In this document: in pieces, positions 30,403 to 33,431 of the stretch
How positions within the stretch are numbered: the stretch's first letter is position 1
How the letters are laid out: each line of letters begins with the position of its first letter
From: Roseibacillus sp.
Lineage (GTDB): Bacteria; Verrucomicrobiota; Verrucomicrobiia; Verrucomicrobiales; Akkermansiaceae
Direction: 5' to 3'
Assembly: GCA_965242925.1 (NCBI GenBank)
Contig: CBDEUM010000014.1
Location: forward strand, 581,848-645,847
Length of the DNA stretch: 64,000 nt
The notes under the pieces: model-generated
What the model was told of the DNA's origin: nothing
Seen by the model: only the letters and a program-made list of their open reading frames with translations
Database searches by the model: none
Translations under genes and position numbers: made by a program

Positions 30403-31281
30403 ATGAATTCTGCGCTCTGCGCCAAAGTTGCCACTGCGGTTGTTCTAGTCCTCAGCCCATACGAGCCCCTTCCGGGCCAGGGGGCAGAGGCGCCTCCGCC
30501 TGCAAAGTCACCACGAGCAGGGGAAGAAGTGACCCTGCCCGCAGGCAGTATTGTGGCCAAGGCCTACCTGGCCCTGCCCGAGGCCCCCGGTCCCCACCCC
30601 GGGATTCTCATCTCCCCGGAGTGGTGGGGGCACAATGACTTCGTCCGCATGCGGGCCGACATGCTGGCCACCCTCGGCTATGCCGCCCTTGCCATGGACC
30701 TCTACGGCAACGGCAAGAAGGCGCACGATCCACAAACGGCGGCTAGGCTCGACGGAGCCCTCAAGGGAAACCAGAAAGAGATGAATGCCCGGGTCCTTGC
30801 CCACCTCAAGTTCCTGGTCGGACGGCCCGAGGTGGATGGGGACGCCATCGCCGCCATCGGCTATGGTAGCGGCGGGGATGTGTGTCTTCAGATGGCGCGC
30901 AACGGTATGCGGCGGCTCGACGGAGTAGTGGCCTTCCACCCGTTCTTCAGAGTGCTCCCCTCCCAACCACCCATCTCCAAGGCCACTGCCCGCGTGATGG
31001 TCTGTGATGCACGCGAAGACCCCTATGTCCATCTTCGCAAAGGCACGGTGGAGGCCTTCAGGAAGGAGATGGCCAGCGTGAAGACGGACCTCACCATCGT
31101 CCCCTTCCCCGACTCCATGCAGGGTTTCACCGTTCCGGGAGCTGACAAGACCGGCGAGAAGTTTCGGATTCCCTACGTCTACAACGCCAAGGCCGATACC
31201 CGCGCCTGGGGCCTGCTAAAGGGTTTCCTTCGGGATCTCTGGAAGCCCTCGGAATCATCTGGGGGAGCAGAACCCGAGTAG
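30403..31281 (+). CDS. Dienelactone hydrolase family protein, exported, probably catalytically altered
   Basis: PEWWGHN, GYAALAMDLYG, AIGYGSGG (family GYCxGG), YNAKADTRAW; start taken at ATG 30403. Confidence 0.8.
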   Translation: MNSALCAKVATAVVLVLSPYEPLPGQGAEAPPPAKSPRAGEEVTLPAGSIVAKAYLALPEAPGPHPGILISPEWWGHNDFVRMRADMLATLGYAALAMDLYGNGKKAHDPQTAARLDGALKGNQKEMNARVLAHLKFLVGRPEVDGDAIAAIGYGSGGDVCLQMARNGMRRLDGVVAFHPFFRVLPSQPPISKATARVMVCDAREDPYVHLRKGTVEAFRKEMASVKTDLTIVPFPDSMQGFTVPGADKTGEKFRIPYVYNAKADTRAWGLLKGFLRDLWKPSESSGGAEPE

Positions 31282-31343
31282 ATCAAACCCCACCATTTCT
31301 CCTTACAGCCCCCATCTGCTCCCCGGGGGGAGCCTTCCTCAAG

Positions 31344-31913
31344 ATGAAACAGCGGAAACTGACTGTCCTTGCCAGCGCCGGGCTCCTGCTCCTCGCCTCC
31401 TGCGGCGACCCGGCCACGACCGAATCGGGTGACTCCACCCCGGCCCTCCAGCAACCCCCTCCCCCCCCCAGTCCGGAGGTCCTTGCCGCTCTCAAGGAAC
31501 AAGCCTTCGGCAGCAAGCTCCTGGGCAGGACCAAGTATCTCGTCGGAGAGGGGTATGTCGCCGCCGACCTGCCAAAGGCTCCTCGCTACTATCTCCTAAA
31601 CTTCAGCGCAAGTTGGTGAGGCCCCTGCAAGGAACACGCTCCAGAGTTACTGGAGAAATACAGAAAGCATGTCTTGCCGAACCCGGCAGTTGAACTGATC
31701 CATGCCAGCTGCGATGAAGTCGCAGAAGAAGCAGTCAAGTGGGCCTACAAGGTGGGTTTCACATGGCCCACCGTCCTCTGGCCGGACTGGGAGGCGGTCG
31801 GGTTAGGAGCCTATGGAGCTTTGGCCGGGGAAATGTTCCTGGTAGATAGCAACGGAACCCTGGTCGCGGAGACCGAGGACGAGGCATTTGCAAAAATTGA
31901 CGAACTAAATTGA
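31344..31913 (+). CDS. Thioredoxin-like lipoprotein, probable selenoprotein (TGA 31617-31619 read as Sec, WUGPC)
   Basis: ORFs 31344-31619 and 31674-31913 are in one frame separated only by TGA; FSASW-TGA-GPC; lipobox LLASC; downstream hairpin; 189 aa with readthrough. Confidence 0.85.
31639..31655 (+). promoter_or_regulatory. Putative bacterial SECIS element 1
   Basis: CTCCAG-AGTTA-CTGGAG hairpin; 25 nt lie between the TGA and the loop. Confidence 0.7.
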
Positions 31914-31971
31914 ACACTTCCCATATGCCATTACGTTAGAACCCAAGGAAGAGGCCTCCTCCCTTATATCT

Positions 31972-32691
31972 ATGAAACTAAGACATCTCCTCCATGTTGG
32001 AATCGTGGCGCTCCTCGGAGTCGGCGCGGTCTCCGCCCGGACATGGACCAGCGCCAACGGGAAAAAGACGTTCGAGGGCGAATTGAAGTCCTTCGACAAG
32101 GAAAACGACACGGTCACCATCGTCTACAGGAACGGCCGCACGGTCACCTTCGGAACCCAAAAACTTTCCGAGGCGGACAGGACCTTCCTTGAAGAAAACG
32201 GCAAGGCGGCGGCGGACGCTGCCGACCCCGCCGACGTGGAAGCTTCCCTGAAAGGGCAAAAGATCGGGAAACCCCTGGCGAAGAAGGGCATCCTTTCCAA
32301 ACTTGAGGGCGAGAAGTTCGCCAATTTTCAACTTGAGAAGGCCCCGCAGTATTACCTCGTCTACTTCTCCGCGAGCTGGTGACCGCCCTGTCGTGCTTCT
32401 GCTCCACAGTTGGTGAAGCAATACAAGGAAGAGGTTGCCGATCATCCCAGCGTCGAGATGATCCACGTGAGTCTGGACAATGACAAGAAGGCCGCAGAAT
32501 CGTGGGCGGCAAAGGAAGGGTTTCCCTGGCCTACCGTGATGAAGGACAACTTGGAGCGCAGCGGCCTTGGGGACTACATCCCGAGAGGCGTTCCCAACTA
32601 CAAACTCATCAGCAAGGATGGGGAGATCGTGGCGGAGGGCAAGGGCGCCGTATTCCAGAAAGTCGCGGAATTGAGCAAGACGGAGGTATAG
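31972..32691 (+). CDS. SHD1-like + thioredoxin-like exported protein, probable selenoprotein (TGA 32380-32382 read as Sec, WUPPC)
   Basis: ORFs 31972-32382 and 32410-32691 are in frame across TGA; YFSASW-TGA-PPC, VSLD, GVPNY; N-terminal RTWTSANG...LSEADR; 239 aa with readthrough. Confidence 0.88.
32400..32420 (+). promoter_or_regulatory. Putative bacterial SECIS element 2
   Basis: TGCTCCAC-AGTTG-GTGAAGCA hairpin (7 of 8 pairs); 25 nt lie between the TGA and the loop. Confidence 0.7.
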
Positions 32692-32803
32692 AAGACTCCG
32701 CCCATCCGTAAAAGGTCAGCGGGTCGAGTTACTCCGAACCGCTTTTTGCAATGGGCCATCCTTGCTCTCCGCGCCCCCGGCGTCATACTTTGTTCACGCA
32801 TCC

Positions 32804-33016
32804 ATGAAACATCTCGCTAGAATTACACTCCTCCTTGGGGCCTGCTCCCTTTCTTCCTGCGCTCTGGCCAACAAACTCATCCAGGCTCCCGTTCGTCTTC
32901 TGCAGGCTGGCGTGCGGACCATTTCGGATGTCGGGGATCCCACTCCACCAGCCACCGCCGAAGCAACCCGGGTTCACGGCGTGGCCCTGAAGAACACCGA
33001 AGCAGGCCTCAGGTAA
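32804..33016 (+). CDS. Small hypothetical lipoprotein
   Basis: MKHLARITLLLGACSLSSC lipobox; its end overlaps the tsaE stop. Confidence 0.55.
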   Translation: MKHLARITLLLGACSLSSCALANKLIQAPVRLLQAGVRTISDVGDPTPPATAEATRVHGVALKNTEAGLR

Positions 33017-33431
33017 CGCGGGTCACCCGCCTCGCCTCCCCGGGCAGAATCTGCAGGTTCACCCGCAAGGCCCCCCCCGGAAGCAGCTCGGGGAAACGGC
33101 TCGCCCATTCCACCGCCAGAATACTTCCCGATTCCTCCACGAATTCATCCCAGCCGAGGTGGAGAATTTCCTCTGCTCTCTCCACTCTGTAAAAATCGAA
33201 GTGGTAAAGGGCCCGGACCCCCATGCGGTATTCGTGCAGGAGCGTGAATGTGGGGCTCGTCACCGGTCCCCCATGGCCTACGCCTGCGGCCAGGCCTTTG
33301 ACCAATTCGGTCTTCCCCGCCCCCAATTCACCATCCAGCCCAATCACTCCTCCATTTATCAATTCGCCCGCCAGATCACGTCCCAGCGCCTGCATCGCGC
33401 TCGGATCCTTGCATTTTCTGGGAAAATCCAT
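33009..33431 (-). CDS. tsaE: tRNA threonylcarbamoyladenosine biosynthesis ATPase
   Basis: GELGAGKT, SPTFTL, HFDFYR, VEW. Confidence 0.95.
   Translation of the reverse strand: MDFPRKCKDPSAMQALGRDLAGELINGGVIGLDGELGAGKTELVKGLAAGVGHGGPVTSPTFTLLHEYRMGVRALYHFDFYRVERAEEILHLGWDEFVEESGSILAVEWASRFPELLPGGALRVNLQILPGEARRVTRVT

Follow-up and report, generated by a model that had tools for sequence, protein, structure and literature searches.

Two adjacent genes, A and B, each interrupted by one in-frame TGA codon at the catalytic position of a thioredoxin-like active site, were identified in a 64,000-nucleotide (nt) stretch of the genome of Roseibacillus sp. (Verrucomicrobiota, family Akkermansiaceae; GenBank assembly GCA_965242925.1, contig CBDEUM010000014.1, positions 581,848 to 645,847 of the forward strand), referred to below as the window. 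It is highly probable that both are genuine selenoprotein genes, whose in-frame UGA is read as selenocysteine (Sec, U in the motifs). Sec insertion itself we infer, and likewise in which direction the redox reaction would run and which substrates and reductant take part. The features of the locus, including candidate Sec insertion sequence (SECIS) hairpins, are listed below in window coordinates.

31344..31913, + strand: gene A, predicted lipoprotein and TlpA/thioredoxin-like selenoprotein of 189 residues including Sec92; ends in an ordinary TGA (31911-31913)
31344..31403, + strand: predicted signal peptide of gene A with lipobox (LLLAS-C20), read by eye from the sequence
31617..31619, + strand: predicted Sec codon of gene A (W-U-G-P-C), a TGA read in frame and placed by the aligned homologue column
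31639..31655, + strand: candidate SECIS hairpin of gene A, CUCCAG-AGUUA-CUGGAG; its stem begins 19 nt downstream of the UGA
31972..32691, + strand: gene B, predicted secreted selenoprotein with SH3-like and TlpA/tryparedoxin-like parts, 239 residues including Sec137; ends in TAG (32689-32691)
31972..32037, + strand: predicted signal peptide of gene B (residues 1-22, GAVSA/RTWTS boundary), read by eye; residues 1-19 are disordered in the structural model
32038..32196, + strand: predicted small beta-barrel of gene B (SH3/SHD1-like, residues 23 to about 75), from model strands, a weak Pfam match, and homologues
32380..32382, + strand: predicted Sec codon of gene B (W-U-P-P-C), a TGA read in frame and placed by the aligned homologue column and its position in the model
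32394..32420, + strand: candidate SECIS hairpin of gene B; the family register is 32401-32419, GCUCCAC-AGUUG-GUGAAGC, and the minimum-energy fold uses 32394-32420

Gene A is read from the ATG at 31344 (MKQRK...YYLLNFSASW-TGA-GPCKEHAPELL...IDELN) and gene B from the ATG at 31972 (MKLRH...YYLVYFSASW-TGA-PPCRASAPQLV...SKTEV). Each frame contains one internal TGA, located at the position of the first Cys of the WCxxC thioredoxin motif. An initial annotation of this DNA had proposed that four open reading frame (ORF) fragments are in fact two continuous frames with one TGA each; indeed, all four mechanical ORFs (translation table 11; 31344-31619, 31674-31913, 31972-32382, and 32410-32691) fall within genes A and B as pieces of them. 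The read-through products of A and B share 42% identity over 147 amino acids (aa) with an E value of 4e-34, and matches to the Pfam families Thioredoxin_8, AhpC-TSA, and Thioredoxin span the TGA in both; Redoxin was reported too. The thioredoxin motifs quoted in that annotation downstream of the TGA were all located (IHASCD/IHVSLD and GFTWPTV/GFPWPTV), the cis-Pro motif GVPNY being present in gene B alone. Under the standard reading, the genes would yield truncated products of 91 and 136 aa. The prediction that gene callers would split such genes was borne out by the public protein collection, which mostly holds N-terminal stumps of 133-140 aa. Among the public entries for homologues of A and B, one (P0003) has Gly at the site, and another carries the name 'hypothetical protein [Roseibacillus sp.]'. 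Gene callers thus cut these proteins at the catalytic residue and leave stumps called 'hypothetical protein'; since the genes are truncated in annotation, the redox capacity of these Verrucomicrobia is under-counted.

Mechanical ORFs with TTG starts do exist at 31674 and 32410, 19 and 10 codons after the respective TGAs, as would be expected if each frame comprised two separate genes, one for an N-terminal-domain protein and another for an independently initiated C-terminal protein. The break between them would fall inside the CxxC motif, between strand beta-1 and helix alpha-1. Moreover, conservation extends over the codons between the TGA and the TTG, including that of the resolving Cys; Pfam and PDB alignments cross the TGA as single matches; and the Cys-containing homologues are single polypeptides. 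All of this makes such an arrangement extremely improbable.

The search for homologues used gene B as a query against 41 genomes, comprising this one (G000) and 40 relatives. Frames with the W[U/C]xxC motif and long open flanks were taken from 30 loci in 29 genomes and gave 38 sequences; one locus returned by the search (L048) gave no sequence matching the motif. The aligned codon is TGA in 30 of the 38 homologues, spread over 21 genomes (G020, G029, and 19 members of the genus, this genome among them), and TGT or TGC in the remaining 8, found in 8 more distant genomes. The column therefore holds Cys or TGA throughout, as the initial annotation had anticipated. In the protein collection, Cys forms were found at 39-45% identity (P0011, P0012, and P0014). 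The TGA was unchanged in 30 of 30 close homologues despite synonymous sites being near saturation: the proportion of synonymous differences (pS) was 0.54-0.75 in non-trivial pairs and mostly 0.6-0.75. The ratio of nonsynonymous to synonymous substitution rates (dN/dS; Nei-Gojobori method, comparisons with the window copies) over approximately 100 codons after the TGA ranged from 0.05 to 0.39 in 12 comparisons of gene B and from 0.17 to 0.40 in 5 of gene A. Selection downstream of the TGA, also proposed earlier as a check, is thus purifying in all 17 pairwise comparisons (0.05-0.40). No second internal stop or frameshift was present in any homologue copy aligned.

In the maximum-likelihood tree, seven Cys forms were set off from the Sec forms by a 100/99 branch, while the eighth (L040) formed a very long branch of uncertain placement. 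Sec forms make up the whole of the A clade (6 rows, with orthologues in 6 genomes) and of the B clade (18 rows). Since both clades are all-Sec, the TGA should be older than the A/B duplication and represent one inherited state rather than two coincident mutations. The aligned sequences indicate that it is an ancestral feature, kept since before the A/B split and through speciation. Sec has thus apparently been retained through gene duplication and across the whole genus. The distribution of selA follows the same division: the gene was found in 19 of the 21 genomes with TGA forms, the exceptions being this genome and the 70%-complete G006, vs only 1 of the 8 genomes with Cys forms. Some congeners carry three tandem Sec copies (L022, G009 C122:1-3068, and L023, G014 C58:47370-51089), of which the extra one forms its own clade in the tree. 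A third paralogue of A and B is also encoded elsewhere in the genome under study (C22:23068-23835, L075); it has a signal peptide, the ARTWTS domain, and a thioredoxin fold with the SASW-U-GGC (WUGGC) site.

These data bear directly on the possibility that A and B are pseudogenes, in which a nonsense mutation arose in each gene and the downstream parts are decaying. Public gene calls that stop at the TGA, giving the 91-aa and 136-aa products, would agree with decay, as would the failure to find selA in this assembly and the loss of the cis-Pro in gene A (both considered below). Decay is hardly compatible with a TGA present in all 30 of the close homologues from 21 genomes while synonymous sites approach saturation, with downstream dN/dS values of 0.05-0.40, with the lack of any further stop or frameshift in the aligned copies, and with all-TGA A and B clades whose shared codon predates their split. 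We regard it as highly improbable. The earlier argument that Sec recoding fits better than decay is upheld on several counts, namely, the conserved TGA alternating with Cys, purifying selection, the downstream hairpin, and a tree that shows one inherited TGA. Another trivial explanation would be that the TGAs are assembly or sequencing errors for TGC or TGT, which might be suspected because the genome is metagenome-assembled. The chance of this is negligible, since 21 genomes assembled independently of one another share this TGA, three paralogues within the present genome have it, and many database entries end at exactly this residue.

Selenoprotein decoding in A and B would also call for an RNA signal after the UGA, and a candidate was recognized in an ungapped alignment of the 63 nt following each UGA. 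An almost invariant block, GCUCCNCAGUUGGUGNAG, follows the UGA. It contains a stem of 6-7 bp, formed by columns 22-28 with columns 34-40 after the UGA, with an AGUU(G/A) loop; the stem starts 19-22 nt downstream of the codon. Paired cells made up 84% of the stem columns, vs 26-53% when the 3' partner was slid by 1-3 columns. The covariation score was 0.067, compared with 0.031 in shuffled alignments, and none of the 500 shuffles reached it. At the closing position, 27 sequences have a C-G pair, and two, the gene A copies of this genome and G006, have G-C instead; this amounts to one compensatory event. Codon choice within the hairpin is also constrained. The Leu codon in the loop is TTG or TTA in 30 of 30 TGA forms, two codons that together account for 8.5% of Leu codons in the long frames of the genome, and the Ala codon is GCT in 28 of 30 TGA forms vs 13% genome-wide. 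In the Cys forms, the loop codon is CTG or CTT in 6 of 8 sequences, TTG in one, and an Ile codon in one; these forms lack the hairpin and gave no consensus structure. After the terminal TGA of gene A, the first 34 nt are unpaired; only a weak hairpin occurs there, starting 32 nt after the codon, a greater distance than the 19-22 nt seen at the Sec sites.

The same kind of element was observed at the other candidate Sec sites of the genome. When 66 nt were folded after each of its 17 candidate Sec codons, a hairpin was found at a comparable distance in 17 of 17. The loops mostly contain GU, as in AGUU (AhpD-like protein), GGUC (ArsC-like protein, FdhA, and a family of FG-GAP repeat proteins), and GUC (SelD). 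In the SECIS of Escherichia coli fdhF, SelB is contacted via G-U in the apical loop. The third paralogue of A and B (L075) has a hairpin of the same type, GCUCCAC-AGUUG-GUGGAGU. Judging from the sequence alignment, the hairpin is a good but unproven SECIS candidate and the predicted binding site of SelB.

Genes for most of the Sec machinery were identified, so the expectation of the initial annotation that selA, selB, selC, and selD should be present was confirmed for the tRNA, SelB, and SelD but not for selA in this MAG (metagenome-assembled genome; 89.9% complete, 42 contigs). The tRNA-Sec with the anticodon UCA is encoded at C30:304340-304433; it scored 59 bits against the Rfam model, with a gathering threshold of 47 bits, and was called SeC(tca) by ARAGORN. 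Of the 46 tRNAs found, no other reads UGA, and the tRNA-Trp has the anticodon CCA. SelB is complete (contig C34, 663 aa) and comprises the domains GTP_EFTU, Beta-barrel_SelB, SelB-wing_2, and SelB-wing_3. The selD gene (C14:573853-574776, L009; 366 bits) is located 7 kb upstream of the window start. SelD appears to be a selenoprotein itself, with a TGA in SSCAG-U-ASKLG and a GUC-loop hairpin 26 nt after the UGA.

The genome also encodes release factor RF2 (prfB, 476 bits), has a G+C content of 60%, and uses TGA as the commonest stop codon. Since TGA closes 1070 of the 2085 open frames of at least 400 codons, the genetic code is standard and UGA has not been reassigned. This is of importance for another conceivable explanation, according to which the UGA is recoded to something other than Sec, either by genome-wide reassignment to Trp or Gly (codes 4 or 25) or by a near-cognate tRNA inserting Cys or Trp. 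Such recoding could be invoked because the public call P0003 was translated with Gly at this codon, evidently under code 25, and because a genuine lack of selA would rule out the synthesis of Sec-tRNA. We consider it very unlikely: TGA terminates the long frames just mentioned, including those of gene A and selB, and RF2 is present; the G+C content does not favor it; the only tRNA with a UCA anticodon is tRNA-Sec, the tRNA-Trp being of the CCA type; the homologue column holds Cys and neither Trp nor Gly; and SelB, SelD, and the SECIS-like hairpin are all in place.

Both products are predicted from sequence to be exported, A as a membrane-anchored lipoprotein and B as a soluble protein with a signal peptide. 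The N-terminus of gene A, MKQRKLTVLASAGLLLLAS-C, represents a lipobox, and the pattern L-[AG]-[SG]-C recurs in all but one of the 6 A-clade orthologues, the exception being L025 with LAC. B-type orthologues share the hydrophobic N-terminus and, after it, the ARTWTS sequence with which the mature protein would start. For gene B, AlphaFold2 with 20 homologues gave a model with a mean pLDDT of 88.6, in which a small barrel (residues 23-61) is joined through a helical linker to a thioredoxin fold (residues 108-238). The barrel is formed by strands 23-27, 33-42, 47-52, and 57-61; this N-terminal domain has a weak Pfam match to the C-terminal SH3 domain of RimP, and homologues at about 30% identity carry PF03983 (SHD1) at the same position. 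In the model, residue 137 (U) lies directly before helix 138-154 and after strand 127-133, and is thereby predicted to occupy the canonical nucleophile position of the thioredoxin fold; the UxxC motif aligns with CxxC of ResA and tryparedoxin. The Pfam family PF13905 (Thioredoxin_8) was matched with 47.3 bits for gene B (residues 126-219, E value 2.8e-12) and 31.8 bits for gene A at a cut-off of 27. Gene B was also above the cut-off for PF00578, PF08534 (Redoxin), PF00085, and Thioredoxin_2, and contains the cis-Pro loop (GVP208NY), in which P208 is at least 90% conserved. The name 'thioredoxin' used in the initial annotation is too narrow, because the proteins are of the exported TlpA/ResA/tryparedoxin-like type rather than cytoplasmic TrxA.

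A number of observations weigh against Sec decoding of these genes. Conservation of the hairpin is mostly invariance, with a single double-sided compensatory event, and the hairpin overlaps the conserved amino acids APQLV[EK], so that protein constraint accounts for part of its conservation. In the family register, the stem of gene B has one C.A mismatch, and the z-scores of single-sequence folding are unremarkable (-1.0 and -0.3). An Rfam scan of positions 31300-32800 at E values of up to 10 revealed no SECIS family, the only hit being a spurious lncRNA match. Gene A lacks the cis-Pro, with LAGEMF in place of GVPNY (window positions 31800-31850, residues approximately 153-170), and has higher dN/dS than gene B. 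In the A clade, this site reads AG[ED] in 4 of 6 orthologues and VPD in 2 of 6. An active oxidoreductase with this fold would not usually lack the cis-Pro. Finally, selA had no match in this genome by either PF03841 or TIGR00474, and, to our knowledge, a bacterium without SelA would be unable to make Sec-tRNA(Sec). The gene is present in 18 of 19 congeners. One of them, G008, shares 90.5% DNA identity with this genome across the thioredoxin locus; the 54 kb around its selA had no syntenic match in this assembly in blastn, dc-megablast, and tblastx searches, nor did the selA loci of three other congeners in blastn searches. Given the incompleteness of the MAG, the occurrence of selA in congeners, and the unmatched 54 kb, selA is probably located in a missing segment. 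These data fit that reading, which is the simplest one for the unfound gene, although unproven.

The following mechanism could be proposed, its redox part being based on the established chemistry of CxxC thioredoxin-fold proteins and UxxC selenoproteins. SelB in its GTP form, carrying Sec-tRNA(Sec) with the anticodon UCA, would bind the hairpin 19-22 nt downstream of the in-frame UGA, and the UGA would then be decoded as Sec instead of being used by RF2 for termination. The terminal UGA of gene A, which lacks such a hairpin, would be read as a stop. The products would be exported and act as thiol-disulfide oxidoreductases, belonging to the TlpA/ResA/tryparedoxin-like branch of the thioredoxin fold. 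In the reductase-type active site W-U-x-P-C, predicted to lie in the periplasm, Sec would be the solvent-exposed nucleophile where helix alpha-1 begins, and the Cys after it would serve as the resolving residue. The selenolate could attack a disulfide (or sulfenate) of an extracytoplasmic substrate, and the mixed Se-S bond would be resolved by the Cys to give an internal selenenylsulfide, the oxidized form of the enzyme. A DsbD/CcdA-type electron shuttle in the membrane could then re-reduce the enzyme. One DsbD_TM gene was found in the genome (C4:127864-128520), and its product is a possible reductant of A and B. None of this overturns the known picture of Sec decoding.

Related selenoproteins have been catalogued. 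The 'Prx-like thiol:disulfide oxidoreductase' (PF00578) and the 'Thiol:disulfide interchange protein' (PF13098) are listed among prokaryotic selenoproteins in Table 1 of a 2026 review (PMC13188914) and in Tables 1-3 of PMC1088965, and the former was first described from the Sargasso Sea metagenome. According to these tables, such UxxC TlpA-like selenoproteins resemble A and B in having a TlpA/AhpC-TSA/Redoxin-type fold with Sec in place of the first Cys of CxxC; their Cys homologues are widespread, and the Pfam families concerned are the same ones that A and B match. The descriptions consulted make no mention of the tryparedoxin-type motif WU[GP]PC, a lipoprotein form, an SH3/SHD1-like domain at the N-terminus, two or even three copies in tandem, or an Akkermansiaceae host. 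By comparison with these descriptions, A and B are new members of this UxxC TlpA-like kind. None of the NCBIfam selenoprotein models matched A or B at the cut-off. With this locus, the UxxC thioredoxin-fold selenoproteins come to include forms predicted to be exported, anchored in the membrane, or fused to another domain.

Among proteins of solved structure, the best sequence matches were tryparedoxin, nucleoredoxin, and 16-kDa thioredoxin proteins (among them 4fyu, 2lus, 1qk8, and 6gxg; E values of 1.3e-10 to 1e-6), the nearest being the 16-kDa thioredoxins 4fyu and 2lus and the tryparedoxins. The tryparedoxin-type active site yfSAsWCPPCR..P.l is nearly identical to SASW-U-PPCR of gene B, at an overall identity of 20-27%. 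Tryparedoxin 6gxg showed the highest TM score with the gene B model in Foldseek (0.70), and several homologues of A and B are named 'nucleoredoxin' by JGI. However, tryparedoxins and their kin are Cys proteins of the eukaryotic cytosol, where trypanothione or thioredoxin reductase reduces them, whereas A and B are bacterial, predicted to be exported, and would use a Sec nucleophile. In Foldseek, the gene B model matched ResA, StoA, further exported thiol-disulfide oxidoreductases, and tryparedoxins with E values from about 1e-8 to 1e-6, the best being ResA (1st9, 1.9e-8) and StoA (3erw). ResA, TlpA, StoA, and CcmG/DsbE are extracytoplasmic reductases that function in the maturation of cytochrome c and copper proteins. 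As is predicted for A and B, proteins of the ResA/TlpA/DsbE group are exported or membrane-anchored, and ResA-type enzymes depend on a DsbD/CcdA-type reductant, for which there is a gene in this genome. In contrast to that group, the A/B locus has no cytochrome c biogenesis neighbors, and Sec replaces Cys in the predicted products. The NCBIfam scores were 39.8 vs a cut-off of 123 bits for dsbE, 36.5 vs 170 for ResA, and 15.9 vs 230 for TlpA; this group gave the best NCBIfam matches, with scores of 27-40 bits at cut-offs of 123-359. Being far below these thresholds, A and B are not ResA, TlpA, or DsbE orthologues. The Sec thioredoxin (PF00085, UxxC), a selenoprotein family that appears in the catalogue, shares the W-U-G-P-C motif with gene A. 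Assignment to classical TrxA was considered and rejected, the scores against TIGR01068 being 24-27 bits vs a cut-off of 96.8; classical thioredoxins are cytoplasmic proteins of about 105 aa without a signal peptide, unlike A and B, which have a predicted signal peptide and, in gene A, a lipobox.

A six-frame screen of the genome for TGA-interrupted frames revealed further candidate selenoprotein genes. The resulting list includes many neighboring genes in the same frame, and a candidate was kept only where a domain or a recurring motif extends across the TGA. A genome-wide codon-usage screen for TGA-interrupted genes was tried and discarded, being dominated by antisense frames. In addition to the genes described above, the following candidates were retained (contig coordinates):

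C22:62350-65205 (L072): formate dehydrogenase alpha subunit (FdhA), NCSRA-U-HAPT
C14:406947-407753 (L074), - strand: Prx/BCP, STGG-U-TKQVC
C38:183858-184337 (L076): ArsC-like protein, HNPH-U-GSS
C14:245518-246237 (L077), - strand: peroxidase-related AhpD family, DCYY-U-TLSH
C12:63811-64845 (L071): exported protein, DPGTT-U-GSC, no Pfam or NCBIfam match
C22:98095-101703 (L066), C30:359064-363140 (L064), C13:130395-134276 (L065): FG-GAP/UnbV_ASPIC family
C20:14635-18165 (L067), C29:916-4476 (L068), C17:48854-50974 (L069): FG-GAP/UnbV_ASPIC family
C12:49642-52248 (L070), C13:146029-148494 (L073), C34:104371-107034 (L078): FG-GAP/UnbV_ASPIC family

With A, B, their third paralogue, SelD, FdhA, Prx, the ArsC-like and AhpD-like proteins, and the FG-GAP/UnbV_ASPIC family, the genus appears to be a heavy selenium user.

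The FG-GAP/UnbV_ASPIC proteins are approximately 700-1400 aa long and contain FG-GAP_3/FG-GAP repeats and the UnbV_ASPIC domain; several members also have tetratricopeptide repeats (TPRs) and a C-terminal AhpC-TSA/TlpA-like domain with CxxC. One in-frame TGA occurs in the motif DL-U-S[FC][FLY]WR (DL-U-SF[FY]WRQV), followed by a GGUC-loop hairpin whose stem covaries between paralogues. There were 14 matches in this genome, and one TGA was observed in nearly all rows listed. The family was present in 23 of the 41 genomes, solely in those that also have selA. The motif was located in 108 of 120 full-length database homologues examined, and in these the corresponding column holds Asn (44), Ser (30), Ala (16), Cys (9), or other residues (9). 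The family is not named in the 2026 review (PMC13188914) or among the NCBIfam selenoprotein models, and a full-text literature search pairing it with selenocysteine returned nothing relevant. It may represent an undescribed selenoprotein family. One could speculate that the tandem WUxPC proteins, instead of being housekeeping reductases that stand alone, belong to a lineage-specific extracytoplasmic selenium redox network, serving or being served by the greatly expanded exported FG-GAP/UnbV_ASPIC (CRTAC1-like) family, but we hold this to be rather doubtful; if it were true, the selenoproteome of the genus would rank among the larger ones in bacteria and consist mostly of exported proteins.

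A scan of positions 30900-33100 for promoters and terminators gave counts not above those in shuffled sequences, and the sole relevant match was the gene A hairpin on the opposite strand. The A/B locus is flanked by genes for glutamate dehydrogenase, dienelactone hydrolase, a DUF6726 protein, and TsaE, and these neighbors offer no clue to function. The last position of the window, 64000, corresponds to position 645847 of contig C14 of this genome, which is the end of the contig.

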